Shown: positions 8,463 through 38,126 of the stretch, piece by piece
Numbering within the stretch: position 1 is the first letter of the stretch
Layout of the letters: every line of letters starts with the position of its first letter
From: a virus
Lineage: Duplodnaviria; Heunggongvirae; Uroviricota; Caudoviricetes
Virus record (IMG/VR): IMGVR_UViG_3300028833_000055
Span: 32,001-96,000 of that record
Length of the DNA: 64,000 nt
Direction: 5' to 3' (one strand)
The notes under the pieces: generated by a model
Databases searched by the model: none
The model's input: only the letters and a program-made list of their open reading frames with translations
What the model was told of the DNA's origin: nothing
Translations under genes and position numbers: made by a program

Positions 8463-8493
8463 AAAAAGGAGATGTTGAACATCTCCTTTTTTT
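8463..8493. terminator. bidirectional intrinsic terminator
   Basis: AAAAAGGAGATG-TTGAA-CATCTCCTTTTTTT. Confidence 0.8.
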
Positions 8494-10462: not shown

Positions 10463-10464
10463 AA

Positions 10465-11595: not shown

Positions 11596-11598
11596 ATA

Positions 11599-12154: not shown

Positions 12155-12877
12155 TTAAACCCCCTTTGGTAGAAACTCCGGTTTCATTTTGGGGCATTTT
12201 GTAAACATAAGACTTGATGTAACGAATTTGTCAGAAAATTTCCAGTTACTCAAATCCTTGCATAAACTATCACAACCGTAGAACATTTCGGCGGTATGAA
12301 CCACATTGGACACATCCCATTTACTTATGTCCCTGTCAAAATCCTTACAATTCTGAAACATTCCGGTCATATATACTTCATTCTCCGTATTGAATTTCCA
12401 GTTGTCTACATTACCGTTAAATTTATGGCAGTCTTTGAACATCTCCGTAAAGATGATGACATTGGATACATCCCATTTGTCTAGATTGCAATTAAATTTA
12501 TTACAGTTGTAGAACATTCTATATGTATTCTTGCAATTCGATGTGTTCCAACCGGACACATCCCCGCAAAAATCGGTAAATTGAAATATACCCCTCATAT
12601 TCTCAACATTGGAAACATCGACATCGTTCAAATTACAATCATCACCCCTGAGGTCTACCAAATTTCCAATTAATCTGTTTAATATGGAATTAACCGAATC
12701 TTCATCATCATCTTCCTTTATAATGATATAATATCCGTTCTTATGTCTTTTTCCATTCATATCGGTGAAATCGTGTATTCCCACTCCTTCCGGAAGTTTG
12801 TCCAACATCGGAAGTTTATTCTCTGTTCTTTCAATTTCACCGAAATATTCTTCCGTTAAATTCTTTAAAATTCCCAT
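12155..12877 (-). CDS. DUF285/BspA-type LRR protein with MGILKNLT leader
   Basis: WDVSNV..M..MF repeats (~5); shared N-terminal tag. Confidence 0.85.
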   Translation of the reverse strand: MGILKNLTEEYFGEIERTENKLPMLDKLPEGVGIHDFTDMNGKRHKNGYYIIIKEDDDEDSVNSILNRLIGNLVDLRGDDCNLNDVDVSNVENMRGIFQFTDFCGDVSGWNTSNCKNTYRMFYNCNKFNCNLDKWDVSNVIIFTEMFKDCHKFNGNVDNWKFNTENEVYMTGMFQNCKDFDRDISKWDVSNVVHTAEMFYGCDSLCKDLSNWKFSDKFVTSSLMFTKCPKMKPEFLPKGV

Positions 12878-12907
12878 AAATATACTATATATTCTTAATT
12901 ATTTATG
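12875..12907. promoter_or_regulatory. overlapping divergent CATAAATA late promoters
   Basis: CATAAATA 12875-12882 (+) overlaps the ATG of the - gene; TATTTATG 12900-12907 (-). Confidence 0.6.
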
Positions 12908-12909
12908 TT

Positions 12910-13488
12910 ATGAAATTTGGATTTGACAAGAATACAGGTATTTACGGTCCGAAAAAGGATGAAAACATATATTTCGGAGGCAGTCAAGGCGGTGGTATTA
13001 TCGTCGATGACAAAAAGAATAAAGTAAGATACATCATAGAAAAGGATGGAACTATAACTTGGTTGCTTTCAACGAGAAAAGACCTTCATCTGTACGATAT
13101 GAGAGACGGAAGAATGATTGCCGACAGAGTTATGAGAAAATTCGGAAACGGACACAAATACTCCGATTTCAGATATTTCGTAAGGAATATGAGGGGGGCG
13201 GACGAAAGTTTTCTACCGACATTCGATGAGTTCATAAATGAAAACAAAATGCATTTTGAATGTACTTGTGCAGATGTGACACCCGAAGAATGGGATGAAC
13301 GTATGAAAGGACGGAAAAAAATGGACTACAAAACACTTGTTGAAAAAATAAGAAAGGATTGTCCGGACATTTATAGAAAACTTCGTTTGGAACTTCATAA
13401 TCCATACAAGGATGAATGTTATGAAACAGACACACACTATATTCTGACACATTCAGCAACAAATTATTTTTTTAAAAAAAGCAAGTAA
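12910..13488 (+). CDS. hypothetical late protein with internal capsid-targeting-like motif
   Basis: Internal LPTFDEFINE separates two apparent domains. Confidence 0.65.
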   Translation: MKFGFDKNTGIYGPKKDENIYFGGSQGGGIIVDDKKNKVRYIIEKDGTITWLLSTRKDLHLYDMRDGRMIADRVMRKFGNGHKYSDFRYFVRNMRGADESFLPTFDEFINENKMHFECTCADVTPEEWDERMKGRKKMDYKTLVEKIRKDCPDIYRKLRLELHNPYKDECYETDTHYILTHSATNYFFKKSK

Positions 13489-13489
13489 A

Positions 13490-14095
13490 ATGGGAATACT
13501 GAAAAATTTGACGAAAGAATACTTTGGAAAAATTGAAAGAACCGAAGACAAAATCGATTTACCGGAAGAAATAGCGGATGATGTAAAAAGAAAGAATTTC
13601 ACCGATAAAAACGGTAATAAACACTATGGATTCTATGTTGTCGACGGGAGTTTGGGAGTTCTTAACGCCCTCGTCAATAAATTAATCGAAATAAGAGGAG
13701 ACAACTGTGACCTGAACGACATATATACGGCGAACATAAAGGATATGGCGTTTCTTTTCAGACAGAACGACTGGATGGATAACTATAGTATAGACAACTC
13801 CTCCTTTAACGGGGACATATCCGGATGGGATGTTTCCCAAGTTGAAAGTATGGAAGGTATGTTCATTGATTCCCAGTTTAACGGAGATATTTCCAAATGG
13901 GATGTAGGACAAGTTACAAGTATGTATCAGATGTTTATGGGTTCGGATTTCAATAGGGATTTAAGCGCTTGGGAGGACAAGGTTTCGGAACTGAAGGAAG
14001 TCGGTGATATGTTCTGTGACTGTCCGGTTGAAAGTAATGACAAAATACCAAGCTGGTGGTATGAAGTATCGTCACGGGAGATTGATGGAGAATAA
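13490..14095 (+). CDS. DUF285/BspA-type LRR protein with MGILKNLT leader
   Basis: FNGDISGWDVSQVESMEGMF repeats. Confidence 0.85.
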   Translation: MGILKNLTKEYFGKIERTEDKIDLPEEIADDVKRKNFTDKNGNKHYGFYVVDGSLGVLNALVNKLIEIRGDNCDLNDIYTANIKDMAFLFRQNDWMDNYSIDNSSFNGDISGWDVSQVESMEGMFIDSQFNGDISKWDVGQVTSMYQMFMGSDFNRDLSAWEDKVSELKEVGDMFCDCPVESNDKIPSWWYEVSSREIDGE

Positions 14096-14102
14096 ATAAA
14101 TT

Positions 14103-15038
14103 ATGGGAATATTATTGAATTTGACAAAAGAGTATTTCGGAGACATCGAAAGAGAAGAGGATATAATTATATCACCTGATGATTTGCCTTACGGTGTGGG
14201 CATTCACGAGTTTATCGACAACAACGGCAAGAAACATAAGACCGGATATTATTCCATAGACGGTTCAATAATAAGTTTAAAAACAATCGTCTATAAGATA
14301 ATGTCCCTTAAAGGAAGGAAATGTGACTTGAATATGGTCGATGTTTCAAACATACAGGATATGACGGATTTATTTAGGGATTTGGAGGACTTTGACTGTG
14401 ATGTTTCCGGATGGGATGTCTCCAATGTGAAATCTATGGAAGGAATGTTTTTTCGTTGTAAAGATTTTAAAGGAGACCTTTCCAGATGGAATACGAGAAA
14501 TGTGACCGATATGGAAGGAATGTTTTACGGATGTTCAGACTTCAATAGTGCAATAGGGGGATGGAATGTGTCCAAATGTCTTTGTTTCAACTATATGTTT
14601 AGTGATTGCAAAAAATTCAATCAAGATATAAGCAACTGGCAACTAAATACGGACGAAAAGAAAAAGATAGAAATGAAAGCTATGTTTTATGGTGCAACCA
14701 TTTTTGACCAGCCGATTGGAAAGTGGAATGTTTCAAGGGTAAAAAGAATGGAAAGCATGTTCAGAGACTGTGTAAATTTCAATCAGCCGCTCGGGGACTG
14801 GGACGTATCCAATGTCGGTGATATGTTTGCGATGTTCTCCGGATGTACAAATTTCAACCAGCCGATTGGAAAGTGGAATATGAAGAAAGTGGAAGATGTA
14901 TCCGAAATGTTCAAGGACTGTATAAATTTCGAACAAGACATAAGTGAATGGAAAATCAGTCCAAAAATAAGAAAGCAAGCGGTTTTCGTCAACTGTCCTA
15001 TATTAAAGAGAAATGTACCGGAAAATTTAAGGAAATAA
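14103..15038 (+). CDS. DUF285/BspA-type LRR protein with MGILLNLT leader
   Basis: About 9 FNQPIGKWNVS..M..MF repeats. Confidence 0.9.
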   Translation: MGILLNLTKEYFGDIEREEDIIISPDDLPYGVGIHEFIDNNGKKHKTGYYSIDGSIISLKTIVYKIMSLKGRKCDLNMVDVSNIQDMTDLFRDLEDFDCDVSGWDVSNVKSMEGMFFRCKDFKGDLSRWNTRNVTDMEGMFYGCSDFNSAIGGWNVSKCLCFNYMFSDCKKFNQDISNWQLNTDEKKKIEMKAMFYGATIFDQPIGKWNVSRVKRMESMFRDCVNFNQPLGDWDVSNVGDMFAMFSGCTNFNQPIGKWNMKKVEDVSEMFKDCINFEQDISEWKISPKIRKQAVFVNCPILKRNVPENLRK

Positions 15039-15041
15039 GCA

Positions 15042-15734
15042 ATGGGAATATTATTGAATTTAACAAAGGAATATTTCGGTGAAATTGAAAGAACAGAGGA
15101 TGAACTTCCGATGTTGGAAAGAACACCGGATGGTGTTCAAATACATAAGTTCAGGGATGCAAACGGAAAAATACACAAGAACGGGTATTATATTCCAACT
15201 GGAAGAAAAGATGTTTTTTACCATTTAGTATCGGAACTTATACGCTTGAGAGGTGTGGGGGCAAACCTCAATGACATAGATGTTTCAAATATCAGAGATT
15301 TAAACAGTGTATTCGGATATGAAGACTTCCGTGGTGATGTGTCGGGTTGGGATACATCAAATGTCATAAGTATGTATCGTCTATTCAAGAGATGCAATAA
15401 ATTCAACTGTGACTTAAACAACTGGGATGTTTCAAATGTGGAAAATTTTGAGGAGATGTTCGATGGTTGTGAAACGTTCAATGGAAACATAAGTAACTGG
15501 AAACTAAGTACCGAAAAGGATATACAAGCCGAATATATGTTTAGGAACTGTTATAAGTTTAATTGTGATATCAGCAAATGGAATGTTTCAAAAATAACCA
15601 ATCCATATGGGATGTTCTGGGGTTGTCATGCCTTCAATAGAGATTTGAGCAATTGGGAAATGACCGATGGTAATGCGTTTATAAATTCCAAGGTGGATAT
15701 GAAGAACCTGCCAAAAAAAATTAAAGTAAAATAA
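15042..15734 (+). CDS. DUF285/BspA-type LRR protein with MGILLNLT leader
   Basis: FNCDLNNWDVSNV repeats. Confidence 0.88.
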   Translation: MGILLNLTKEYFGEIERTEDELPMLERTPDGVQIHKFRDANGKIHKNGYYIPTGRKDVFYHLVSELIRLRGVGANLNDIDVSNIRDLNSVFGYEDFRGDVSGWDTSNVISMYRLFKRCNKFNCDLNNWDVSNVENFEEMFDGCETFNGNISNWKLSTEKDIQAEYMFRNCYKFNCDISKWNVSKITNPYGMFWGCHAFNRDLSNWEMTDGNAFINSKVDMKNLPKKIKVK

Positions 15735-15744
15735 TAAATATCTT

Positions 15745-16470
15745 ATGGGAATATTATTGAATCTGACAAAGGAATATTTCGGTGAAACGGAGAGGGAAGA
15801 GGACAAACTCCCTATGTTGGATGAACTGCCAGGTGGAGTGGAAATACACGATTTCACCGATATGAACGGGAAAAGACACAAGGAAGGATATTATATTCCC
15901 AGTGGGAAAAAAGTACATCTGGCCCGTCTGATTGGTTCTCTAATAGATTTGAGAGGTTTTGACTGCAACTTGAACGATATTGATGTATCAAATATCAAAG
16001 ATATGTCCGGATTATTTTCTCCATATGAAGACTTTCAAGGCGATGTGTCCGGTTGGAATACATCGAGTTGTACAAATATGAAAAGTTTGTTTAGTGGTTG
16101 TGTTCACTTTAACTGCAACTTGAACAAATGGAATGTATCAAAAGTAAAAAATTTCGAAAAAATGTTTTATCATTGCTACAATTTTAACGGAGATATAAGT
16201 GATTGGAAACTAAACACCAAAAAAGTACCCAAAGGTTCACCTTCATATAAACAATCAACCATAGTAACCGATAATATGTTTGAAGACTGTCATAGATTTA
16301 ATTGTGATATCAGTAAATGGGATGTTTCAAATATCATATCGGCATATCATATGATTGCTTGGTGTATTGATTTTCACCAAGATTTAAGTGGTTGGAATTT
16401 AGCTTATAAAAATGAAGAGATAGTCTACGCTTGTGTCAAAATGACGGATGACTTGATGCCCAAACATTAG
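15745..16470 (+). CDS. DUF285/BspA-type LRR protein with MGILLNLT leader
   Basis: FNCNLNKWNVSKV repeats. Confidence 0.88.
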   Translation: MGILLNLTKEYFGETEREEDKLPMLDELPGGVEIHDFTDMNGKRHKEGYYIPSGKKVHLARLIGSLIDLRGFDCNLNDIDVSNIKDMSGLFSPYEDFQGDVSGWNTSSCTNMKSLFSGCVHFNCNLNKWNVSKVKNFEKMFYHCYNFNGDISDWKLNTKKVPKGSPSYKQSTIVTDNMFEDCHRFNCDISKWDVSNIISAYHMIAWCIDFHQDLSGWNLAYKNEEIVYACVKMTDDLMPKH

Positions 16471-17090
16471 AATAGTCTCTTCTTTTCACACGGTTCAAGT
16501 GTTTCAAGAAAATCCACTATCGAATCAAACCTTTCAATCTTAACTTTCTTATCCTTCGTATAGACATATTCACCCGTATCCACACAAGGATACTGCTTCG
16601 TGTCCTTGTTGTATGAACGGTTTATCAGCACACATCTGTCTGCATTTATTTCCTGAAAATACTGTGGGTTGTCGTCCACCATCACATCGACATCGGGAAG
16701 ATTTTTCGCCCTTTTGGTGCAGAATGTAACCGAATCATAAGGTATTCTTGCATCTTCAAGCCACATAAGGGTATGCAGTTTGTTCTTATATGAAGGCTGG
16801 TATGTGATGATGTGTATGGAGTGTCCGTTCTCCATTGCCTTGGTAATCGCCCCTATCACATCCGGAAAAGTGTCCGAGAACCTGTTCACGGTCTCACCGT
16901 TCTGATGTGAAAAGAAGAACTCGTGGGCGGCCATTTTAAGTCTTTTCTCCACAAGTGGAAACGCTTCATTCACAGCATAGAATTTAACATCTTCGGTCTT
17001 CATATTTTCACCGAAACTCGTATTGTATATATTTACCATAGTGTTCACACTGTCTCGAAGAACACCGTCAATATCAACTGCTATTCTCAT
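16467..17090 (-). CDS. HAD-family 5'(3')-deoxyribonucleotidase-like protein
   Basis: IAVDIDGVL, IIT, VMVDDNP motifs. Confidence 0.8.
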   Translation of the reverse strand: MRIAVDIDGVLRDSVNTMVNIYNTSFGENMKTEDVKFYAVNEAFPLVEKRLKMAAHEFFFSHQNGETVNRFSDTFPDVIGAITKAMENGHSIHIITYQPSYKNKLHTLMWLEDARIPYDSVTFCTKRAKNLPDVDVMVDDNPQYFQEINADRCVLINRSYNKDTKQYPCVDTGEYVYTKDKKVKIERFDSIVDFLETLEPCEKKRLF

Positions 17091-17091
17091 T

Positions 17092-17604
17092 TTACCAAGT
17101 TATTATAGGAATATTCAAATTCTTGTTCTCATTCTTAAAATCATACCATAGGAATGCTCCTATCTTGCCCGTTGCCGCAACAACACCACGCAAATACCTC
17201 AAACTCAATTGTTCGGTTTCATACTGCAAAGTGTACTTTATTATTGCAAAATTGTCATAACCATCCACTGGAACATCTTTGAAGTTTCTTTCGGTTTCCT
17301 TCAGTCTCTCTTCACGTTTTTTGTTCAGTTCGTGCGGCGTAAGGTCACAACCACCGACTTGTTCATATATATATCTCTTGTATGCAGCTCTATTGACAAG
17401 TATGTCGTAAGTAAGTACTCCCAATGGAGCATCCATAGTATCCATTATTTCGGCCAATTTCCTTCGTGTCTGCCTTAAAAAATAACAATAGTGTTTTTCA
17501 TTGACTTCGGAAATCATATATGCAGAATTGAATTGAAGCATCTGCTTCGCCATATCAAGAATCTCACATACAGTAAGATTGTCATACATATTATAATTAC
17601 TCAT
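17092..17604 (-). CDS. hypothetical protein
   Basis: 170-aa ORF tightly coupled within operon. Confidence 0.7.
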   Translation of the reverse strand: MSNYNMYDNLTVCEILDMAKQMLQFNSAYMISEVNEKHYCYFLRQTRRKLAEIMDTMDAPLGVLTYDILVNRAAYKRYIYEQVGGCDLTPHELNKKREERLKETERNFKDVPVDGYDNFAIIKYTLQYETEQLSLRYLRGVVAATGKIGAFLWYDFKNENKNLNIPIITW

Positions 17605-18187
17605 TCTTATCCTCCATTTCCTTTGTCATTTCAATAATATCCTTAATCATCTCATCCGTAACATAGATGTCGTTGACACCAACAATTTTATATTCCACAC
17701 CCGCTTCACTCGGAATCCACAAGCAAGATATGTCGTCAAAAATATCACTCCATACCTTTTCTCTAAAATACCAGTCACGATTTGATATACCCTCCGGTTT
17801 GTCGGTCTGGTCCTGATAGTGATAGTCAACCGCTATACCACGGTCGAACAACATCTCATAGTTATCACGACTCTGGTCGTAATATATTCCATAAAGTTTG
17901 TTCTTCCTTTCGAATATTGACACTCCAAATTCAAAATAGAAATCGTTGTATGGTCTTCTCAATTCATTACGAAGCAGCCTTTCAAAATCCCAACAGGAGA
18001 TTTTCTCATTTTCATTCTTCGCCTTGTTGTAGAGAAACGACATATGGATGAAATTCAAGGATTCCTTGTCTTGAAAGGTTTTCATCACATTTTTCTTAGC
18101 CTCTTCCTTCAAACCGTGAAGCTGTCTTATTACTTCACTGAGTTTATTCGACTTGAATTTAATTCCATTGTAAAGTTTCGTACTCAT
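17597..18187 (-). CDS. hypothetical protein
   Basis: 196-aa ORF; TTTTGTTATATTTA upstream. Confidence 0.75.
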   Translation of the reverse strand: MSTKLYNGIKFKSNKLSEVIRQLHGLKEEAKKNVMKTFQDKESLNFIHMSFLYNKAKNENEKISCWDFERLLRNELRRPYNDFYFEFGVSIFERKNKLYGIYYDQSRDNYEMLFDRGIAVDYHYQDQTDKPEGISNRDWYFREKVWSDIFDDISCLWIPSEAGVEYKIVGVNDIYVTDEMIKDIIEMTKEMEDKNE

Positions 18188-18208
18188 AAATTTACATTTT
18201 ATTCAAAT

Positions 18209-18222
18209 TAAATATAACAAAA
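18209..18222 (-). promoter_or_regulatory. TTTTGTTATATTTA motif (putative middle promoter)
   Basis: Exact recurrent 14-mer. Confidence 0.6.
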
Positions 18223-18226
18223 AATA

Positions 18227-18234
18227 CATAAATA
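18227..18234 (+). promoter_or_regulatory. CATAAATA late promoter
   Basis: Upstream of the neck gene. Confidence 0.65.
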
Positions 18235-18257
18235 AAATATATAATCCAATATTTTCT

Positions 18258-19115
18258 ATGAGTAAAGTAAGTACACTCGTTGATTGCAGTGAAGCGGAAG
18301 AAGTTGAATGCTTAAATGACTTTATCGAAAGTATTCAAGCCGAAATGTCTGTAAACTGTTCTCTTCCGTTCAGTATTCCGGCGGAATCAATAGCACAGTT
18401 GGCAAAAAACGCAAAGCAGTTATTCTACAAGATGTATGAGGATGCACACGAAGAAATGTTCATAGCAATCCCACACAAGGAGATTATGAAGAAACAGTTC
18501 GGTCACGGTGTTGCCCATATGGAAGGTGAAAGTGACAAGAAGGTTTTGAAAGACAGAAGAGGTACATATATGTTACCCGAAGGAGTGATTTCCGTCGTAG
18601 GAGTATACGAAATAGGCGGATGGTCCGGTGAAGCGGGCTGGAACTCGGGTCTTCTCGGTAAGACTTCCGGTGATATTTCCCTTCACAGGATGGTGTATCA
18701 GTCGGTATACGACAGGACGATGGCGATTTCTGCCGACAACACTATGTATTACATCTGTACGGAGGCTTTTCTCGATATGTCAAGACAGATATTCCAGAAT
18801 ATGATTTCGTTCAGATACAACCGTCTGACAAACAATTTGAGGTTTTTGGGTGAACTTCCGAAGGACGATGTTGTCATCGATGTTCTTGTCAGAGTTCCGG
18901 ATTGTGACCTGTATAACGATGAAATGTACCGTAGATATGTCATAGCGAGCTGCAAACAGCAACTCGGTAGAATACTCAACTCGTTCACATACAATCTTCC
19001 TGGTAATGTTTCCATAAACTCGGAAGCGATAGCGGACGAAGGAAAACAGGAGATGGAGAACATAATGCAGGAGTTGAGAGATATGTCTGGTGCTTGGTAT
19101 ATAATGACTACATAA
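18258..19115 (+). CDS. neck / head-tail adaptor protein (T4 gp13-like)
   Basis: C-terminal Y..A.CKQQLG..L..F...LPGNVSIN...I..EG..E pattern. Confidence 0.75.
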   Translation: MSKVSTLVDCSEAEEVECLNDFIESIQAEMSVNCSLPFSIPAESIAQLAKNAKQLFYKMYEDAHEEMFIAIPHKEIMKKQFGHGVAHMEGESDKKVLKDRRGTYMLPEGVISVVGVYEIGGWSGEAGWNSGLLGKTSGDISLHRMVYQSVYDRTMAISADNTMYYICTEAFLDMSRQIFQNMISFRYNRLTNNLRFLGELPKDDVVIDVLVRVPDCDLYNDEMYRRYVIASCKQQLGRILNSFTYNLPGNVSINSEAIADEGKQEMENIMQELRDMSGAWYIMTT

Positions 19116-19131
19116 TAGTTGTTATCATAAC

Positions 19132-19159
19132 AAAAAAGAGAGTCGATTGACTCTCTTTT
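19132..19159. terminator. bidirectional intrinsic terminator
   Basis: AAAAAAGAGAGTC-GATT-GACTCTCTTTT. Confidence 0.8.
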
Positions 19160-20072
19160 ATATTAAAGGATAATTTGTTTCCTCCTTTGGTTTGTTTTTC
19201 TTATTCTTGTAGTAGTGTTTTTCTTTTTTCATCTCTTTTCTTTTGAATTTCATTTCTTCAAAAGAAAAATCTTGTTCCTTCATATCGTCACCAAAAAGAT
19301 TTTCACCATATGTTTTTAATGACTCATTCTTTATTCTTCTTTCTGCAATCTTTTTATATTTTTCGGACAATTCAAATCCAATCCAATTACAACCGTATTT
19401 TTCAGCGGATATAGCAGTTGTACCACTACCTATGAACGGGTCTAATACAATTATATTTCCAAGTTCCTTTATCATTTCTTCTGTACCAAGAATACTTGGA
19501 ATAATCCTATCGACAAGTTCTATCGGAAAAGATGCCGGATGTTCATTTTTTATATCAATATTAACAGGCCATATTTCATTAAGTACACTAATTTTACCAC
19601 CGTTATTATATCTTTGACGACTAAATCTAACATTTTTGTTCCCCTTTGTCATCCAATAAATTAGTTCGGTATTTGGGAGATAGTGTGATAGATTTACATT
19701 AATAGAACGTTTTCTATCCCAAATTATAAGTTGTCTAAATACCAATTTACTTTTTAATAACCAAACAGAAGGAAGAATACCAATATTATTCCTTGAACGA
19801 ACTTTATGATTATAAAACAAACTACCACCCTCTTTTAATACACGATGAATTTCATTAAGTATCTCTATCTGCCACTGCTGATATTCACTTTCTTCTTTAT
19901 TGTCCGAATATGTATCATAATCAACTTTTGATGACCACATAGCAGTTTTACCCGATATTTTGTCTCCCATATTATATGGAGGCGAAGTGATAACCAAATC
20001 AATACTATTGTCATCAAGTTCTCTTAATCCATCAAGACAATCGCATAAGTGTATTTTATTTAGCTCCAACAT
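19158..20072 (-). CDS. beta-class N4-cytosine/N6-adenine DNA methyltransferase
   Basis: ITSPPYN (motif IV) before HPASFP and LDPFIGSGTT (motif I). Confidence 0.92.
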   Translation of the reverse strand: MLELNKIHLCDCLDGLRELDDNSIDLVITSPPYNMGDKISGKTAMWSSKVDYDTYSDNKEESEYQQWQIEILNEIHRVLKEGGSLFYNHKVRSRNNIGILPSVWLLKSKLVFRQLIIWDRKRSINVNLSHYLPNTELIYWMTKGNKNVRFSRQRYNNGGKISVLNEIWPVNIDIKNEHPASFPIELVDRIIPSILGTEEMIKELGNIIVLDPFIGSGTTAISAEKYGCNWIGFELSEKYKKIAERRIKNESLKTYGENLFGDDMKEQDFSFEEMKFKRKEMKKEKHYYKNKKNKPKEETNYPLI

Positions 20073-20100
20073 ATCTTATTTAATTTATAACATACTGTAT

Positions 20101-20114
20101 TAAATATAACAAAA
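20101..20114 (-). promoter_or_regulatory. TTTTGTTATATTTA motif (putative middle promoter)
   Basis: Exact 14-mer upstream of the methyltransferase. Confidence 0.6.
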
Positions 20115-20141
20115 AAGGCGAACCATTGATTCGCCTTTTTT
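20111..20141. terminator. intrinsic terminator
   Basis: AAAAAAGGCGAA-loop-TTCGCCTTTTTT after the VWA gene. Confidence 0.75.
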
Positions 20142-20158
20142 GAAAATTAACCATCTCA

Positions 20159-21961: not shown

Positions 21962-21988
21962 ATTAAAATATTTTTTATTTAATTATGT

Positions 21989-23860: not shown

Positions 23861-23916
23861 AAGATATTATTTTATATATATTTATTTGGGATTATCTACT
23901 TTTTGTTATTATACTG

Positions 23917-23948
23917 CAAAGATACTATTTTTTTGGAATTTTTGCAAG
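23917..23948 (-). promoter_or_regulatory. Bacteroidota-type sigma promoter (CTTG-N20-TATCTTTG)
   Basis: Matches -33 TTG and -7 TAnnTTTG with 20-nt spacing. Confidence 0.7.
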
Positions 23949-23970
23949 TTTAAGTAGATAATTCCATATT

Positions 23971-23978
23971 TATTTATG
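23971..23978 (-). promoter_or_regulatory. CATAAATA late promoter
   Basis: Directly after the terminator, upstream of the HExxH gene. Confidence 0.55.
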
Positions 23979-24014
23979 AAAAAAAAAAGTGTCAGATTAC
24001 TGACACTTTTTTTT
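23979..24014. terminator. intrinsic terminator
   Basis: A-run-GTGTCAG-ATTA-CTGACAC-T-run. Confidence 0.8.
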
Positions 24015-24020
24015 CATTTT

Positions 24021-26987: not shown

Positions 26988-27000
26988 ATATTAAAATTTT

Positions 27001-29037: not shown

Positions 29038-29040
29038 AAT

Positions 29041-29048
29041 TATTTATG
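29041..29048 (-). promoter_or_regulatory. CATAAATA late promoter
   Basis: Heads the ATPase cassette. Confidence 0.6.
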
Positions 29049-29057
29049 AAAACACTT

Positions 29058-30704: not shown

Positions 30705-31087
30705 AACACAATTCCCTCTTCTGATGTAATGAATGAAATCTTATCACCCATTATACTAGAATAATATTCATAAGTTTTAAGTTCCTCCTCATTCATACCA
30801 GGTGTAACAATAAACACCCTGTCTATATTGACGAGTGAAGTTATGACAATCTGCTCGTATACATCAAGAAGATTTTCGTCAATATCACCCGTAAGGAACT
30901 GAAGGACACATCCGTCATACACAACATTGTTCCTCTTGTTCTGTCCATATGTCTCCTTCGCCATATCGACTATGCCGTGTACTTCACCTATTTTCGGTTT
31001 CACCGCTTCCGTTTTAAGAAACCTGTTCAACCTCCTGATGACTCTTTCAACCACCTCTCTGTCCTTGCCAAATACTGCTACCTTCAT
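30701..31087 (-). CDS. hypothetical protein
   Basis: 128-aa ORF overlapping the gp46 start. Confidence 0.65.
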   Translation of the reverse strand: MKVAVFGKDREVVERVIRRLNRFLKTEAVKPKIGEVHGIVDMAKETYGQNKRNNVVYDGCVLQFLTGDIDENLLDVYEQIVITSLVNIDRVFIVTPGMNEEELKTYEYYSSIMGDKISFITSEEGIVL

Positions 31088-31103
31088 AATCTTATTCCTT
31101 AAA

Positions 31104-33056
31104 TTACCTTAATGTTATTTTATCGTTTTCAATTACCGCTTCAAGGATATCCTCCTTCTTTCCAAGTATCTTGGATTCATTGACCACAAGGTTGGCGACC
31201 TCTTCCTCTATCTCCTGTTCAAGAAGTCTTATAATCGGTCTTGCACCATTGTGTTCCTCCTCCACCTTGTTTAATATCCAGTTTTCCACTTCGTCACTCA
31301 ATACAATATCCTTGTGGATTATATTTCTGATATTGACGTTCATTTCCTTCATTTCCTTCTGTAAGATTTTCTTCAAAACATCACGACCTAGATTATTGAA
31401 ATAACATACGGAGTCAAGTCTGTTCAAAAATTCCGGAGAGAACCTCTTGGCGAGAGCCTTCCTCATAATACTCTCCTCCTTCTTGTTCTTCAATTCCTCG
31501 TAATTTTCGGTGAAACCCATAGGATTGGAGAGTTCCTTCGCCGACTTTACTCCGATATTCGATGTAAAGATTATGAGAGCCTTGCTTCCATCCACCTTCA
31601 CGCCATCGGAACCGGTTATACTACCTTCATCGAGAAGCTGTAACAAGACATCGTAAATCTTCGGATGTGCCTTTTCAATCTCATCGAAAAGACATACACA
31701 TTCGGGTTTTTTGGACAGACCCTTGACAAGAAGACCACTCTCCTTGTATCCGACATAACCGGGGGCGGAGCCGAGAAGTTTAGAAACATCGACTTCCGAC
31801 TGAAATTCGGACATATCGAACCTTATTATATTCTCTTCACTGCCAAAAAGGTTCTTGGCGAGAGACTTTGCAAAGGCCGTCTTTCCGACACCGGTAGAGC
31901 CTATGAACATATAGTTGCCGGCCGAATGTGCCTTCTTTCTCAATCCGAGACGGTTTCTCCTTATGTTCTTCACAATCTTGTCGATAGTTTCATCCTGTCC
32001 TATGATATCCTTCCTTATTTCATCCGGAAGGTTTCTCAAAAATTCGGTCTTGTCTTTCGAAAGTTTTGTCATAGGAACATTTACTATGAATCCTATCGCT
32101 TCAAGAACATCATTTTCCGTAACCTTGACTTTCCTTTTGTTCCTGTTCAACTGCTTTATTTTATCTTCTATAACTTCCGATTGATTATTAAGTTCCTTAA
32201 ACTTGTGATAATCACCTTTTTGAGCATAAACACTCATTTCATTCCTCAATTTGGAGTTTTCCATTGCCAGTTCTTCCGCCTTTCTGCTCCCCGCTCTTTT
32301 GTTACGGTACAGATATGAACAAACCTCTTCGAGAAGGTCTTCCCCTTTCTTCGGGAACGGGAATCTCTTTATGTACTTGTCTGCGTTTTCACACACCATT
32401 TCACAGACTCCTTCCGGAAATATTATCTTGTACTCGTCTTCGAAATACGGGATTAAATCCGTGAGGATTTCACAAGTCTGCTCTTTATTGAGTTCAACTG
32501 GTCTTATTATGGTGAAATAGTCGAGAACTTTCTTGAAATGCTTGTCAAGTTCGTTGTACTCGTCGTTAGTGGCCGTTGAAATAACCCTCAAACCTTCATA
32601 TTCTATGTGTTTCAAGAACTCGTTCAAGAAAATATACCCTCCGTTTTCAAAACAGTTGGTGTTTATCACGTGTCCGAGATTTTCCACGAATATTATATTG
32701 TCCCATCTCTCGTCCGTCTGAACATACCTGAACACTTCCTTCAAACCCTCAACATAGTCCTTCTTGCTGTTGACATAGTTCATAATGGTCGTGAAGTCAA
32801 AATGTATCACCCTGAAAGACGGATTTTTCTCAACGAAAGCCTCGATTATGCTTCTTTTTCCACAACCGTAGTCACCCACGAGAAGCACGGACTTGTTGTT
32901 GCACTTGTCCATTATGTTACGGATTCTCTCTATTTCATTGTCCCTGAATTTCACTTCAAAATCCGACCTCTGGACAATATCACCTATATAAAGTTCAATC
33001 TTTTGATTTTCACCTTCTTTTGAATTCGGTTTTATTTCCCTATAAATTTCACCCAT
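31104..33056 (-). CDS. Clp/Hsp100 ATPase (ClpC-like) lacking the N-domain
   Basis: IIGQDE, GSTGVGKT, RFDMSEF, GSAPGYVGY, LFDEIEKAH, PEFLNRLD, GARP; degenerate first NBD. Confidence 0.9.
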   Translation of the reverse strand: MGEIYREIKPNSKEGENQKIELYIGDIVQRSDFEVKFRDNEIERIRNIMDKCNNKSVLLVGDYGCGKRSIIEAFVEKNPSFRVIHFDFTTIMNYVNSKKDYVEGLKEVFRYVQTDERWDNIIFVENLGHVINTNCFENGGYIFLNEFLKHIEYEGLRVISTATNDEYNELDKHFKKVLDYFTIIRPVELNKEQTCEILTDLIPYFEDEYKIIFPEGVCEMVCENADKYIKRFPFPKKGEDLLEEVCSYLYRNKRAGSRKAEELAMENSKLRNEMSVYAQKGDYHKFKELNNQSEVIEDKIKQLNRNKRKVKVTENDVLEAIGFIVNVPMTKLSKDKTEFLRNLPDEIRKDIIGQDETIDKIVKNIRRNRLGLRKKAHSAGNYMFIGSTGVGKTAFAKSLAKNLFGSEENIIRFDMSEFQSEVDVSKLLGSAPGYVGYKESGLLVKGLSKKPECVCLFDEIEKAHPKIYDVLLQLLDEGSITGSDGVKVDGSKALIIFTSNIGVKSAKELSNPMGFTENYEELKNKKEESIMRKALAKRFSPEFLNRLDSVCYFNNLGRDVLKKILQKEMKEMNVNIRNIIHKDIVLSDEVENWILNKVEEEHNGARPIIRLLEQEIEEEVANLVVNESKILGKKEDILEAVIENDKITLR

Positions 33057-33078
33057 CTTGAATATTTAAGATTAAAAA

Positions 33079-34044
33079 TTACTTCTGAATTTCCTGCTGA
33101 AGTTCGTATATGTTGGCGAGAAGCACAATGACCGGGTCTATGCACTGCTTCAAGTTCATCTGATACTTTGCGTTAAGTATGGCGATGACAGGTATCCTTC
33201 CGACCACATTCGGTCTGTTTTTCAAGATATACTGTACAAACGGATTACCAAGAGCCGATATGGCGTCATCCACACAGTTGGAATAGTTCTTCATAACGAA
33301 CTTGTAGTTTTCAACGGGGTTGTCCTTTGTAAGTACCATATCGTAGAGTTCTGCATATTCACTTACATTATCCTTTACATCATCAACGTCAATGGTCTCC
33401 TTACCTTCCAGCTTGTATCTCTGCAAATGGTTGACTATCGAGCGGAAATCCGGAAAATATGTCTGAACCATCTTCAATGCGGCCTCCTTTGTGATTTTGA
33501 GACCTTCCTTCGAGCATATTTCACACACTCTCTTGAACTGTCCGATTTTTATCTCCTTCATCTCCTCGTTGGTGAAATTGAAGTCGATAACTTGGAAACG
33601 AGACTGTATGGGGTCCGGAATCTTTTCGAGATAGTTACAAGTACCGATAAAACGAGTGTTCTTCGCACATTTCTCCATAGTGGCACGGAGGGCGTTGTAC
33701 GCCTGCTGGCTCATACCGTCCATCTCATCCATAATGACAACCTTTATGGGATTGTCGTAATGGATTACTGAAGTGTTCATAGCGAAGTCCATAATCGTAT
33801 CCCTGATGGTATCGACACCGGTTGTCTCCGACATATTAAGATAAAGGGTGTTGTGTTTGAACTCCTTTGTAATCGCCTTTGCCGCCGATGTTTTTCCGAT
33901 ACCCGCCGTACCGTGAAGAAGGATTGACTGAACCACTCCGTTTTTCAACATTTCACTCACCCGCTTCGGAACAATGAGTTCCTTTATGCAAGTTGGTCTG
34001 TACTTCTCTGTCCAGAGAATCGTATCAATATTGTTTACTGACAT
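33079..34044 (-). CDS. clamp loader ATPase subunit (T4 gp44/RFC small)
   Basis: LWTEKYRP, GTAGIGKT, IMDEMD, IQSRF. Confidence 0.93.
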   Translation of the reverse strand: MSVNNIDTILWTEKYRPTCIKELIVPKRVSEMLKNGVVQSILLHGTAGIGKTSAAKAITKEFKHNTLYLNMSETTGVDTIRDTIMDFAMNTSVIHYDNPIKVVIMDEMDGMSQQAYNALRATMEKCAKNTRFIGTCNYLEKIPDPIQSRFQVIDFNFTNEEMKEIKIGQFKRVCEICSKEGLKITKEAALKMVQTYFPDFRSIVNHLQRYKLEGKETIDVDDVKDNVSEYAELYDMVLTKDNPVENYKFVMKNYSNCVDDAISALGNPFVQYILKNRPNVVGRIPVIAILNAKYQMNLKQCIDPVIVLLANIYELQQEIQK

Positions 34045-34071
34045 ATATTATAATTTTTAAATCTTATAATC

Positions 34072-34085
34072 TAAATATAACAAAA
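34072..34085 (-). promoter_or_regulatory. TTTTGTTATATTTA motif (putative middle promoter)
   Basis: Exact 14-mer upstream of the clamp loader. Confidence 0.6.
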
Positions 34086-34129
34086 CAAAATCCCCATAAA
34101 TACAATATGATAAAAAAGATTATGATTTT

Positions 34130-34160
34130 AAAAAGGGTGTCCGTCAAGACACCCTTTTTT
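34130..34160. terminator. intrinsic terminator
   Basis: AAAAAGGGTGTC-loop-GACACCCTTTTTT. Confidence 0.75.
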
Positions 34161-34617
34161 AACATTTTATCATTTCCTTGAAAAAACTGCTCATAACATC
34201 CACGACAATCGAATTTCCAGCGAGTTTCAACATCTGTGCATCCGACAGACCCGTTTCCTTTATCCGGTCGGCTTCATCCCTTTCAAGCCCCATAAGGAGA
34301 AGACCTTCATAACCACTTAACTCCCTGACCTTGTATTCACCCTCGTCCGTTATCAGAATTTTAGGTGCCATACATAATGTGAGTGTAGTACAACACCCCT
34401 TGGCAGAATACACCCTTCCGTCCTGAGGATTTCGAAAATTCTTCCTGTTGATTCTCAAATTTCCGAGTTGAATAAGATGTGGGGTTTTGTCGATTTCAAC
34501 ATCATCAGTCTTTTCACCAAAAAGATTTTCATCCGCCATTATTTCCTCGTCTAACTGTTTGACGAGAGTGTTGACGTGTTTACTTTGTTTTCCCTTCTTT
34601 ATTTTACTTACATCCAT
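34159..34617 (-). CDS. C5-cytosine methyltransferase, C-terminal subunit (TRD, motifs IX-X)
   Basis: TTLT, VRELSGYEGLLLMG (IX), KLAGNSIVV (X). Confidence 0.8.
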   Translation of the reverse strand: MDVSKIKKGKQSKHVNTLVKQLDEEIMADENLFGEKTDDVEIDKTPHLIQLGNLRINRKNFRNPQDGRVYSAKGCCTTLTLCMAPKILITDEGEYKVRELSGYEGLLLMGLERDEADRIKETGLSDAQMLKLAGNSIVVDVMSSFFKEMIKC

Positions 34618-34626
34618 ATCAAATTT

Positions 34627-34821
34627 TTAATTTCCGTTATGAAAATAGACACTCATTCTCCAACGCAAGAAACCGAATATGATTTCAGAACCGAAACCCC
34701 GTTCAAGATTCTTTTTACGGAAAGATATACACGGAAGAATAAGATAGTCTGCGTTTTTGAAAAAAATCAAATGAAAAGGCATCCGTTTCGGACAACCTTT
34801 TGTTAAAAATACTTCCTTCAT
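34627..34821 (-). CDS. small hypothetical protein between the methyltransferase halves
   Basis: 64-aa ORF with 9-nt gaps either side. Confidence 0.45.
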   Translation of the reverse strand: MKEVFLTKGCPKRMPFHLIFFKNADYLILPCISFRKKNLERGFGSEIIFGFLRWRMSVYFHNGN

Positions 34822-34830
34822 AATAATCTG

Positions 34831-35550
34831 TTATTTTTGTTCCACTGCGAATTTAAGAAAATGTTTGTTGTAATGAATATAATTGTCAACGATTTCCTTA
34901 TTGACACACAATTTATTGTACAAGTCTTCACCAAGTTCCTCCTTTGTAAGCATATAGTCCTCCATCGAAGTCTTTACGCCGGTCGGTTTCGGGAACTCGA
35001 ACTCGTTCTCCGGATTCATAATGGAAACCATATAAACCCTCCTTCTGTCTTGTGGAATACCATATTCAAGACCACATAGAACTTTCCAGTAAGATGTATA
35101 TCCTATCGAATCAAGGAAATTTACCCACTTCATAAAAGTTGGTATAAAGTTCCTTGAAACCAACATCTTCACATTCTCCAACATCAGATATTTCGGTTTC
35201 TTGATTTCAATCGCTTTCTTGCATTCCCACAAGAGAGAGGATTGTGTTCCCGAACCTTCCTCACCGCCCAACATCCTGCCGGCAATACTGAACGAAGTGC
35301 AAGGCGAACTGTAAGTAAAGAAATCAAAATCAGGTACTTGTGTCCAGTCAATCTTGCAGATGTCTCCGTAGTTTCTGTCCTTGTATTCGGGAAACAAGGC
35401 ATCGTGTGCTATAATGGCTCTCTTTTCTATCTCACTCCATCCGACCAAATCAAATGGTATCCCCGCCTTCCGTAAAGCGAGACACTGACTGTCGTAACCG
35501 GAAAATGTAGTAAACACCCTCAAAGGGTTTTCTTCAGTGTATTTCATCAT
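34831..35550 (-). CDS. C5-cytosine methyltransferase, N-terminal subunit (motifs I-VIII)
   Basis: FSGYDS, SSPCTSFS, MLENV, PQDRRRVY; lacks motifs IX-X. Confidence 0.88.
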   Translation of the reverse strand: MMKYTEENPLRVFTTFSGYDSQCLALRKAGIPFDLVGWSEIEKRAIIAHDALFPEYKDRNYGDICKIDWTQVPDFDFFTYSSPCTSFSIAGRMLGGEEGSGTQSSLLWECKKAIEIKKPKYLMLENVKMLVSRNFIPTFMKWVNFLDSIGYTSYWKVLCGLEYGIPQDRRRVYMVSIMNPENEFEFPKPTGVKTSMEDYMLTKEELGEDLYNKLCVNKEIVDNYIHYNKHFLKFAVEQK

Positions 35551-35570
35551 ATAATTACAATCTTATACAC

Positions 35571-35584
35571 TAAATATAACAAAA
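35571..35584 (-). promoter_or_regulatory. TTTTGTTATATTTA motif (putative middle promoter)
   Basis: Exact 14-mer. Confidence 0.6.
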
Positions 35585-35593
35585 TAAGAAGTT

Positions 35594-35863
35594 CTACTCC
35601 TCTATTTTTTCACCGAATTTAATTATGTATGCATCCATATTGTAATTCACAAGTCTCCCTTTTTTTATCCACTCGAACTTATATCTCACCGGTTTTATAT
35701 TACTCTTGAATCTGTGGTAAAATTCAACTATGTCATATTCCTTGTCTTCAAGGCGTTTTGTCCAATATGGTTTTATTTCACGATAATCGTGTGTAAGTTG
35801 TCCGGAAACAATCAGATTGTACCAGTATTCGTTCACCGGAAGTCTCAAAATTCTCATATTCAA
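35594..35863 (-). CDS. ASCH/PUA-like domain protein
   Basis: L.V...WY..I.SG....YREIKPYWTKRL pattern. Confidence 0.7.
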   Translation of the reverse strand: MNMRILRLPVNEYWYNLIVSGQLTHDYREIKPYWTKRLEDKEYDIVEFYHRFKSNIKPVRYKFEWIKKGRLVNYNMDAYIIKFGEKIEE

Positions 35864-35877
35864 TTTGTATTATATGA

Positions 35878-35894
35878 TATTTATGACATAAATA
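35878..35894. promoter_or_regulatory. palindromic back-to-back late promoters TATTTATG-A-CATAAATA
   Basis: Perfect 8-bp inverted repeat with a 1-nt spacer between divergent genes. Confidence 0.65.
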
Positions 35895-35913
35895 AGATAT
35901 AGTAATACACTTT

Positions 35914-36624
35914 ATGGGAATATTAAAGAATTTAACGGACGAGTATTTCAAGAACACCGCCAGGGTCGAAGACGGAAGATACATAGACTTCTACGGTATT
36001 AGGATACTAGTACCGGCGGATTATGATACCTATGATTTTTTGAAAAAGGTCGAGAGCATATATACCGAGTCATTCAAGCACGGTATGGTGAGTTTGCCAG
36101 ATGATGACACCGACCAGACAAAATTTAAAATCAAACTCAAATCAAAAAACAAGTATATGCTCATACCGGTTTTCGAAAAATTCAAGGAAATTTCCCAAGA
36201 AAATGAAGATGTCGACCAGAAACTGTATGATACATATGTTCTGGTTATGAGACATTTCCTCAAAGATGTGGAATTGATGAAAAATACGAACTGGCCGTGC
36301 ATAGTGCTTCAAAACATAGACTTCATATACGACGAACTGTCAGACAACGGAGAGATAGACAACGGTTATGAATTAGAAGATATTATGCAAAAAACAATAA
36401 ATGAATTTTTCAATGAGTTCAAGAAGAAAGCGGACATAATAAAGGATGAATTTCATATCACAATAACACACAGTTATAAATGTATCACCTTTATGGACCT
36501 GACCAACGAGTCAAGTTATTTTGAGTTCAAGACACTTATATATGCAAATGAGATGGTTGAGTGGTGGAAAAACAAGACCGATGAAATAAGAAAGAAAGGT
36601 GTTCTTAACTATTTTGGATTATAA
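35914..36624 (+). CDS. hypothetical protein with MGILKNLT leader (paralog of 37363)
   Basis: Shared leader; KLYD..., YA.EM.EWW...GV..YFG shared with 37363. Confidence 0.8.
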   Translation: MGILKNLTDEYFKNTARVEDGRYIDFYGIRILVPADYDTYDFLKKVESIYTESFKHGMVSLPDDDTDQTKFKIKLKSKNKYMLIPVFEKFKEISQENEDVDQKLYDTYVLVMRHFLKDVELMKNTNWPCIVLQNIDFIYDELSDNGEIDNGYELEDIMQKTINEFFNEFKKKADIIKDEFHITITHSYKCITFMDLTNESSYFEFKTLIYANEMVEWWKNKTDEIRKKGVLNYFGL

Positions 36625-36638
36625 TTAAATGATGAATT

Positions 36639-37352
36639 ATGGGAGTTTTAAAGAATTTGACAGACGAGTATTTCGGAAACGGGATAAGAACCGAAGACAA
36701 TATGATATCTAATCTCATCAGAAGATGTGTGGATGAAAACAGAAGAGACATATTCGTAAGACTCAACAAAGAATGGGGTGAAGATGGCAAGGAGATTCTG
36801 GTTTATCACAAAGACGCCACAATAAGTGAAGCGAAACTTATGAGTGTCGATGAGGCATTGGGGTTCTTCAAGCACGATAACAATATATTTAGGACTGACT
36901 ACCGGTGTCTTCACATAGAGAACTTTATGGCCACACCGGACACATACAAGGTAAGTACCTTCCATATGCTTCCGGAAAACATACAAGAATCTTTGACCGA
37001 AATGTTCGAGTTATACTGCAAATATCCCGAAACTATCAGTTTCTTTACACATATTATCTATAACCACAAGGAAGGCATAATAAACAATATTTTTCCTGGA
37101 GAACTCTGTAATTATAAAGGAGATGAATATTTTGAAGGTTTTGATGAATATGAGAATGGTGATGATGTTGTTGAATTTATAACGACTGACGGAGATTTCT
37201 TCTGTTATGATGACGAGAAGTATTCGTCCGAATGGGGAAATATCTTTAACAAGATATGCGAGGCGTTTGAGAACGAAGGATTCAAAGAGGCTTTGGATAT
37301 GTGTGACATAACTTCAAGCGAAAAAAGATTTTTCTTCGGAAAGATAAAATAA
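36639..37352 (+). CDS. hypothetical protein with MGVLKNLT leader
   Basis: Shared leader, unrelated body. Confidence 0.8.
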   Translation: MGVLKNLTDEYFGNGIRTEDNMISNLIRRCVDENRRDIFVRLNKEWGEDGKEILVYHKDATISEAKLMSVDEALGFFKHDNNIFRTDYRCLHIENFMATPDTYKVSTFHMLPENIQESLTEMFELYCKYPETISFFTHIIYNHKEGIINNIFPGELCNYKGDEYFEGFDEYENGDDVVEFITTDGDFFCYDDEKYSSEWGNIFNKICEAFENEGFKEALDMCDITSSEKRFFFGKIK

Positions 37353-37362
37353 AATACTGAAA

Positions 37363-38115
37363 ATGGGAATATTAAAGAACTTGACAGACGAGTATTTCGG
37401 AGAAATCGCAAGAACCGAAGATGGAAAATACATCACTGTACATGGATGTAAGGTATTGGTTCCAGTGGACTATGATGAGGAAAAGTTTCTTTCATATGTG
37501 GATGAACTGCTTGACACTGAATATTATGACAGTTATCCGGCGGCATTGATTGTACCATCGAGTTATATAAGAGAGTATGATGATAAAACAATAGTGAATT
37601 GTGACGGAGCATATCTTGTACTGTATAATTTTTCCGACATCGACAGTGAATATATACCGGAAGGTACGGATGAAAAACTATATGACTCGTTTATAAAATT
37701 CATGAAACATATCGCCGATGGTGTTAGTCTTATGATATACAGTTCCACCGGTCACATCTGTCTTGTGGATGAAAGTACTATGTATAATGACTTTGATATG
37801 CTGTTTTATGAAGCAGGTGTCGATGGGGATGAAAGTTATTGGTGTTTCAATGACCTTGTGGATATGTTCATTGAAGAATTTGGCGGCAAGGTTGACATAG
37901 ACAAGGACGACCTTGTGTTTATGTCATATAACAACTATGCATCAAATATTCTTTTACCGGTAGAAAGTTCGGATGATATCATCAATTTGAAAAGACTTAT
38001 GTACGCAAAGGAAATGACGGAATGGTGGGAAAGAGAATTTAAAGCCATAAAGGACGAAGGTGTATCGGATTATTTCGGTATCGACCCGCCTGAAGACGAA
38101 CCAGAAGACGAATAA
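37363..38115 (+). CDS. hypothetical protein with MGILKNLT leader (paralog of 35914)
   Basis: Shared leader and conserved blocks with 35914. Confidence 0.8.
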   Translation: MGILKNLTDEYFGEIARTEDGKYITVHGCKVLVPVDYDEEKFLSYVDELLDTEYYDSYPAALIVPSSYIREYDDKTIVNCDGAYLVLYNFSDIDSEYIPEGTDEKLYDSFIKFMKHIADGVSLMIYSSTGHICLVDESTMYNDFDMLFYEAGVDGDESYWCFNDLVDMFIEEFGGKVDIDKDDLVFMSYNNYASNILLPVESSDDIINLKRLMYAKEMTEWWEREFKAIKDEGVSDYFGIDPPEDEPEDE

Positions 38116-38118
38116 TCA

Positions 38119-38126
38119 CATAAATA
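38119..38126 (+). promoter_or_regulatory. CATAAATA late promoter
   Basis: Upstream of the fibre gene. Confidence 0.65.

Follow-up and report, generated by a model that had tools for sequence, protein, structure and literature searches.

A portable N-terminal tag on unrelated late proteins of a T4-type jumbo phage, probably a variant of the T4 head-loading signal

In phage T4, the internal proteins IPI-III and Alt carry an N-terminal capsid targeting sequence (CTS), which the gp21 prohead protease removes (PMC9026906, PMC3012670; Mullaney & Black 1996 cited therein). The first ten residues of IPIII are sufficient for loading into the head (PMC9026906, PMC3012670). Within them, residues 4 and 7 serve targeting and residues 8 and 10 serve processing (PMC9026906), and an Asp at position 10 blocks cutting (PMC9026906, PMC3012670). 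Here we describe a 20-residue N-terminal tag, MG[IV]L[KL]xLTxEYF-x4-R-x-E-[DE], that opens eight genes in a 64,000-nucleotide stretch (the window) of the IMG/VR record IMGVR_UViG_3300028833_000055. The window corresponds to bases 32001-96000 of the 363,334-bp genome of a T4-type jumbo phage. The analysis supports the tag as a portable N-terminal label, under strong selection at the peptide level, on unrelated and fast-evolving late proteins. The tag is probably a variant of the T4 head-loading signal and not a wholly new address system.

The resemblance to the T4 system extends beyond the peptide. Like the T4 CTS, the tag occupies the extreme N-terminus, is portable between unrelated cargos, and combines hydrophobic residues at positions 4 and 7 with Glu at 10. 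In both systems, late genes are involved, a gp21-type protease and a gp23-type capsid protein are encoded, and the cargo genes are hypervariable. In contrast to the T4 CTS, the tag is twice as long, with a near-invariant second half (Y11 F12 ... R17 x E19 D20), has an invariant Gly2 in the window, and has the beta-branched Thr at position 8, two places before the Glu, an imperfect match to a hydrophobic Ile or Leu; the residue after the putative cut is Tyr11. T4 has a handful of such cargos, whereas the tag is found on 16 proteins per genome and on ten classes of body (the part of the protein that follows the tag), and it is known from sequence alone.

Two other types of system offer partial parallels. 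In the giant phages phiKZ, 201phi2-1 and SPN3US, a protease related to gp21 recognises short motifs and cleaves after Glu (PMC10052503, PMC7411985, PMC9026906), with several sites per precursor and many proteins packed in the head. The propeptides of these phages differ from the tag in that they are not one common portable peptide, and the literature searched on the three phages contained no repeated near-identical junction module between unrelated units. Encapsulin cargo-loading peptides lie mostly at the C-terminus, are left uncut and attach directly to the shell protein. They also are short conserved terminal peptides that send unrelated cargo inside an HK97-fold shell, but the tag is N-terminal and no sequence likeness between the two was found.

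Conservation of the tag and diversity of the bodies

The eight tagged genes reported by the initial annotation were recovered at their positions in the open reading frame (ORF) listing, and the tag opens each of them. In the first cluster, a minus-strand gene at 12155-12877 encodes a 240-aa protein, with the tag in codons 1-20 (12818-12877). The plus-strand operon beside it begins with an untagged 192-aa gene (12910-13488), the product of which has an internal CTS-like F-D-E-F-I-N-E near residue 100, and continues with tagged genes at 13490-14095 (201 aa), 14103-15038 (311 aa), 15042-15734 (230 aa) and 15745-16470 (241 aa). All five tagged proteins of this cluster have DUF285 leucine-rich repeat (LRR) bodies (Pfam E 1e-20 to 2e-98; PF03382 at 74-325 bits against a cut-off of 25). 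The second cluster, on the plus strand, contains tagged genes at 35914-36624 (236 aa), 36639-37352 (237 aa) and 37363-38115 (250 aa). The first and last of these encode paralogous type B bodies and the middle one a third body type (type C); both types are acidic orphans. The count of eight copies holds for the window and not for the genome, in which a six-frame scan identified 16 tagged genes at seven loci. By body, these comprise ten DUF285 proteins, three of type B and one each of types C, D and E, the last being a very acidic 410-aa protein. The seven loci are scattered and have unrelated neighbours.

Residues M1, G2, L4, N6, L7, T8, E10, Y11, F12, R17 and E19 are invariant across the eight proteins of the window. 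To survey cargo diversity, the scan with a leader profile suggested by the initial annotation was run: a 30-position profile was searched against 1.84 billion proteins and returned 135 matches at E<=0.001, nearly all starting from residue 1, each match being the representative of a 50%-identity cluster. In this wider family, M1, L4, T8, E10, Y11, F12 and R17 are invariant and G2 and E19 near-invariant; Leu occupies position 4 in 133/133 sequences and position 7 is L, I, M or V in 133/133. Position 6 is Asn in 65/133 and T, K, E, D, R or S in the remainder. Hence N6, included in the earlier consensus, is dropped from it, and the N-L-T match to an N-glycosylation sequon (N-x-S/T) is no feature of the tag. 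A separate database search placed the tag at residue 1 in 116 of 117 pattern-fitting proteins.

All tag-bearing sources are metagenomes, and the GenBank phage collection gave neither a DNA nor a protein match. Three tag-bearing contigs are filed under rumen Bacteroidales metagenome-assembled genomes (MAGs), which suggests a rumen habitat and a Bacteroidales host. Contigs L020-L022 (81-167 kb), which are filed under such MAGs, carry the tag on class F bodies. Despite their bacterial bins, they are probably of phage origin and were grouped with the host.

Selection acts on the peptide and not on the DNA, since codon positions 1 and 2 of the leader are conserved between copies (80% identity) and position 3 is free (51%). 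Gly2, Leu4, Leu7, Thr8, Glu10, Arg17 and Glu19 are each encoded by two to four codons, and the DNA upstream of the tagged genes is unrelated between copies. An RNA- or DNA-level element and recent gene conversion were ruled out on the basis of the third positions and the upstream DNA.

The bodies are unrelated across types. BLAST searches with residues 21 to the end revealed no significant similarity between body types, as expected from the earlier observation that similarity ends after RxED. Among the 108 representatives of at least 100 residues, ten body classes were distinguished: DUF285 (27), type B (25), a lectin-like class with a weak Lcl_C-like signature (16), type E (13), type C (8), class F (8), a further class (7), type D (2) and two singletons. 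Tag identity is 62-71% within classes and 64% between them, while body identity is 24-35% within classes and 17% between them.

AlphaFold2 (AF2) models were obtained for one protein of each of two types. The DUF285 protein from 15042 is modelled as a solenoid (mean predicted local distance difference test score, pLDDT, 92.6; body above 90), with tag residues 1-20 at pLDDT 64-68 and a helix at residues 2-11. The type B protein from 37363 has a mean pLDDT of 84.6, with tag residues 1-13 below 50. The two folds differ, and on both the tag is a detached helix of low confidence. A longer N-terminal domain common to the tagged proteins is thus refuted, given that the bodies are unrelated, the modelled folds different and the tag detached. 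Types B and C matched no Pfam or PHROG family and returned nothing from the ESM Atlas or from Foldseek searches of PDB and BFVD, where the 37363 model had no structural match; the best Z of 5.5 in a VIA-align search with type B and C bodies is at noise level.

These data also bear on whether the tag has any function of its own. It could be a relic of paralogy, or recombination between neighbouring genes could have copied a convenient translation start. In line with this, tagged genes often lie in tandem, 3-14 nt apart, and most database members are DUF285 proteins. Against it, ten classes keep the tag while their bodies have diverged, synonymous sites vary freely, upstream DNA is not conserved, and the two modelled bodies have different predicted folds. 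The codon pattern, the number of body classes and the comparison of tag with body identity largely refute this explanation, which we regard as very improbable.

The tag is amphipathic and charged. As the initial annotation had stated, the tagged proteins have neither signal peptide nor transmembrane helix: by hydropathy only, no such stretch was found in any of the 16 proteins (highest 19-residue Kyte-Doolittle mean <=1.5). A Sec, Tat or lipoprotein signal peptide or membrane anchor was rejected on this ground, with no dedicated predictor applied.

Late promoters, head machinery and ordinary CTS-like tags

The tagged genes belong to the late genes of the phage. The motif CATAAATA occurs 81 times in the genome, where about 32 occurrences would be expected. 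Of the 64 genes that have it upstream at a distance of no more than 80 nt, 51 have it at 15-29 nt. It is one base away from the T4 late promoter TATAAATA. Genes behind it include the portal, the protease and most tagged clusters. In the window, a divergent pair of CATAAATA copies at 12875-12907 separates the two arms of the first cluster: the copy at 12875-12882 (+) drives 12910-16470 and the copy at 12900-12907 (-) drives 12877-12155. A further copy at 35887-35894 (+) precedes the second cluster, 19 nt before its first gene. The initial annotation had placed every tagged gene behind a late promoter; this applies to the head of each window cluster, and the other genes are operon-internal.

The genome encodes the head machinery expected of a T4-type phage. 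A 672-aa ORF (genome positions 108469-110487) starts with a Peptidase_S77 (T4 gp21) domain of approximately residues 1-220 (PF03420, E 1.6e-11) and continues in a long scaffold-like tail with repeated Y-[IL]-x-E, and there is a gp23-type capsid protein (PF07068, E 8.4e-30); both matches exceed the curated cut-offs. The capsid propeptide contains L-N-E|S and I-T-E|S sites that are conserved in all relatives. Portal, T4-like clamp loader and topoisomerase genes are also present. A 234-aa gene between the protease and capsid genes was set aside as a scaffold candidate; its product looks membrane-anchored and an unrelated gene replaces it in the relative G003.

In addition, ordinary CTS-like tags with the pattern [FY]-[ED]-[ED]-[FY]-[IV]-x-E stand at the start of about 15 other genes, with I or V at P3 (two residues before the cleaved Glu) and a small or polar residue at P1' (directly after the cut). 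Several of their genes adjoin tagged genes, and the same CATAAATA drives this group. Within the window, one such gene at 61328-62806 (+) begins M-K-N-I-L-S-F-D-D-F-I-L-K-E, and others start at 7853 (+), 50961 (+), 52513 (-) and 59549 (-). The tag had been regarded as distinct from these T4-like tags. This distinction has to be given up, as the first ten residues of the tag follow the CTS pattern and a related module stands directly behind a canonical CTS in sister phages.

A sister module and candidate cargo polyproteins in related phages

Relatives were collected from IMG/VR by their capsid proteins, which range from 99% to 46% identity. The tag is confined to records with a capsid protein at least 84% identical (G001, G011, G013, G016 and the present genome). 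It is not present in G003 and G006 (94% complete; capsid 75%) or in G009 (complete, 48%). The sister clade with 75-77% capsid identity instead carries a module, S-[VIA]-W-x-D-[IM]-x-[KR]-R-x-x-G...[KR]-x-E-D. G003 has 27 copies of the form S-[VI]-W-x-D-I-R-[KR]-R-G-x-G, three residues, K-x-E-D, and G006 has 39 copies of a variant; other variants occur in G002, G004 and G007. No record holds both tag and module.

The tag and the module with its preceding residues align without gaps over positions 3-19, sharing L4, N6, [IL]7, T8, an aromatic residue at 12, an acidic one at 14, I15 and a basic residue at 17; beyond an eight-residue deletion, they share the ending [KR]-x-E-D. When the two tag profiles were compared with hhalign, the expected gapless alignment was recovered, but weakly (P 0.005, probability 7.5%). 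A ten-residue variant of the pre-sequence in G006 ends in L-T-E|S, in the same register as L-T-x-E10 of the tag, and Thr two places before Glu is also found at four sister-clade sites. Homologous bodies occur under either tag, for type E at E 9e-21 and for the lectin-like class at E 4e-36 and 3e-14. In the G003 orthologue of the untagged gene 12910-13488, the F-D-E-F-I-N-E is replaced by an S-V-W module, which is followed by a type E unit. Tag and module are probably homologous, as argued mainly from context: they exclude each other between sister clades, and homologous bodies carry one or the other. In the clade that bears the tag, its second half is always accompanied by the first and is never internal.

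The position of the module is informative about processing. In G003, 23/27 copies follow a Glu and 4/27 follow the start Met; the residue three before the module Ser (putative P3) is I, L, V, T or M in 25/27. The module comes after M-K-K-L-S-N-I-T-E, after a canonical CTS (M-I-P-D-F-K-T-Y-I-x-E), after a bare Met or after the end of the preceding unit. The pattern [IL]-x-E|S also describes the two capsid-propeptide sites of all relatives. The related protease of SPN3US favours Ser at P1', and Met aminopeptidase takes off Met before Ser (PMC10052503). As the copies follow either Glu or a start Met, cutting after Glu and removal of Met would both leave S-[VI]-W at the N-terminus. This same predicted mature N-terminus by either route is the strongest indirect argument for processing.

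The module also recurs inside long proteins. In G003, 11/27 copies lie within ORFs of 317-918 aa, and the highest number in a single ORF is five for G003 and seven for G006. The multi-unit ORFs are 442-982 aa long and consist of three to seven mostly unrelated units, each behind [ILVT]-x-E and the module. Such loci are found in G003 (L083:12013-14769 and L089:18527-L090:1225), G006 (L115:7800-10801) and G002 (L119:1-2200), and on this arrangement the ORFs are candidate cargo polyproteins of the sister phages. Picornaviruses and retroviruses produce polyproteins that are cut by a virus-encoded protease. The sister-clade form is similar in that one ORF holds up to 5-7 units and a repeated motif with a protease site. 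It differs in that the units are putative accessory cargo and not replication or capsid proteins, that the junction is a 20-residue conserved module plus a cut site, and that cutting is proposed to occur inside the prohead. Neither a conserved second module nor its use at polyprotein junctions was described in the literature searched.

Upstream of the tagged gene at 123132, outside the window, the genome encodes a 104-aa protein (122815-123129) with a Gly/Pro-rich stretch, N-V-G-G-M-G-D then P-G, that it has in common with the N-terminal arm of the mature capsid protein; a homologous piece forms the last unit of the 918-aa multi-unit protein of G003 (72013 ORF). The 104-aa protein may be a mimic of the capsid arm. 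In the distant G009, free DUF285 proteins have a CTS-like start followed by K-L-N-I-[QK]-P-[VI]-[ST]-K. This third lineage-specific leader in two parts is seen at loci L068, L074 and L075 of the genome, both on DUF285 proteins and on others.

Possible roles of the tag and neighbouring genes

We propose, with somewhat more belief than doubt, that the tag is a two-part leader for prohead loading and processing, derived from the T4 CTS in a lineage-specific manner. The prohead, one of several receptors named in the initial annotation, is the best-supported target, in view of the T4-type head machinery and the CTS-like first half. Part 1 (residues 1-10, M-G-[IV]-L-[KL]-x-[LI]-T-x-E) would be an amphipathic propeptide that guides the late protein to the scaffolding core during head assembly, after which the gp21-type protease would cut after Glu10. 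Part 2 (residues 11-20, Y-F-[GK]-x3-R-x-E-[DE]) would stay as the new N-terminus of the cargo, where it might help to keep the protein in the head or to let it leave with the DNA. It could instead be lost through another cut, behind the near-invariant Glu19. In the sister lineages, a longer module would be placed after a canonical CTS, a start Met or a polyprotein junction, and the head protease would release many cargo units from one chain.

The steps of this scheme are not equally secure. What the analysis shows is the set of sequence patterns with their occurrence, the late-promoter motif, the genes for protease and capsid protein, and a tag that is flexible in the models; packaging, cleavage, retention and delivery are all inferred. 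Loading of the tagged proteins into the head is somewhat more likely than not. Cutting after Glu10 has slightly less than an even chance. That the second half is kept on the cargo is a tentative suggestion; it is favoured over removal because the sister module sits on units already behind a CTS and also on internal units, for which separate targeting would be unnecessary. More speculatively, residues 11-20 and the S-[VIA]-W module may form a second-stage address that is kept after the head protease cuts in front of it, is read by a receptor co-evolving within each lineage, and, in the sister lineages, is carried by up to seven units per polyprotein. Such a receptor might be the inner face of the capsid, the core, the portal or the DNA; the address would then keep the units inside the head or set the sequence in which they leave for the host. 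Injection of effectors into the next host, proposed in the initial annotation, is a conjecture by analogy with T4. An N-degron created by a cut before Tyr11 was considered and rejected, since the sister module would expose Ser, which is not destabilising.

If this scheme is correct, 16 to about 40 different proteins per genome would be loaded into the head by a modular tag, including LRR and lectin-like binders and very acidic orphans. This cargo set would be far larger and more varied than that of T4, and a likely reservoir of anti-defence or host-takeover proteins delivered together with the DNA. The T4 scheme would gain a signal that survives cleavage and a polyprotein-style supply of cargo, and a cargo polyprotein system would be new to the description of phages. 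The tag also provides a simple sequence handle for listing candidate packaged proteins of uncultured phages and a short peptide that might be used to load foreign proteins into phage capsids.

Several observations weigh against a loading and processing leader. The putative cut has Thr at P3 and Tyr at P1', unlike the ordinary CTS-like tags of the same genome. The profile-profile similarity between the two tag families is weak at the hhalign values given above, and the gapless alignment with the nine-residue sister pre-sequence puts the cleaved Glu on the variable position 9. Ten additional near-invariant residues are superfluous for T4-style targeting and may point to some other partner of the leader. 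As typical surface binders, the DUF285 LRR and lectin-like bodies would be well suited to external display on the virion. Finally, the case for packaging and cleavage is drawn from sequence patterns.

Outside display is the basis of one competing explanation, in which the tag or module is an uncut docking peptide that fixes the LRR and lectin-like binders on the exterior of the virion as a mixed adhesin coat. The anchoring site would be the capsid, the neck or a fibre, for instance the collagen-like protein whose gene comes immediately after the second cluster. BspA-type LRR (DUF285) and Lcl_C-like lectin families are usual on cell surfaces, near-invariant residues suggest one specific binding pocket, and no body has an export signal, as expected for assembly in the cytoplasm. 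In two phages, the collagen-like fibre gene immediately follows the second cluster; the remaining tagged loci, however, have no fibre gene nearby. Many tagged bodies are strongly acidic orphans without features of binders, and the same bodies bear ordinary CTS-like tags in a distant relative. In addition, the sister module always stands behind a T4-type protease motif or a start Met and recurs within long ORFs, which indicates processing inside the prohead. We consider external docking unlikely.

The collagen-like gene (38151-39968, +; L001:3681-5675 in the second phage) has conserved ends and a variable middle. It has its own CATAAATA at 38119 and is always found just downstream of the second tagged cluster. 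Tag-less relatives have neither type B bodies nor the collagen-like gene, and likewise do not have more than half of all genes.

A second competing explanation, which we rate as less probable still, is that the tag is read by another phage or host machine: the AAA+, LRR-MoxR, metallopeptidase and VWA group, a Lon-like protease, or an enzyme that modifies T8, Y11 or R17. Such a machine would set the timing of the tagged proteins during infection, remodel them or break them down. Consistent with it, T8, E10, Y11, F12, R17 and E19 are kept more strictly than the degenerate CTS-like tags of the genome, as in an enzyme site; a DUF285 domain is fused to a MoxR ATPase, and the window encodes a Lon-like protease. 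The LRR-MoxR gene, however, is also present in G002, G003, G004 and G006, all of which are without the tag and without free DUF285 genes. Because the AAA+, LRR-MoxR and VWA genes occur in such relatives, the nearby AAA+/VWA machinery, proposed as reader in the initial annotation, is not the dedicated partner of the tag. No gene was found to travel with the tag, in a comparison that is too coarse for this purpose (the present genome and the tag-less G003 share 190/444 genes), and the spread of tagged genes over seven loci with unrelated neighbours likewise argues against a dedicated machine.

Other genes of the window were noted in passing. The Lon-like ATP-dependent protease (31104-33056, -; phrog_4871, E 1e-130) lies between clamp-loader and SbcC-like genes. 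The large terminase is encoded in two ORFs, both matching PHROG terminase, within 8492-12132 (-), with a 376-aa endonuclease-like ORF between them. Similarly, a homing-endonuclease-like ORF (53881-55008, -) stands between the gene for the topoisomerase II large subunit (55111-56988, -) and a second topoisomerase II ORF (52539-53891, -).

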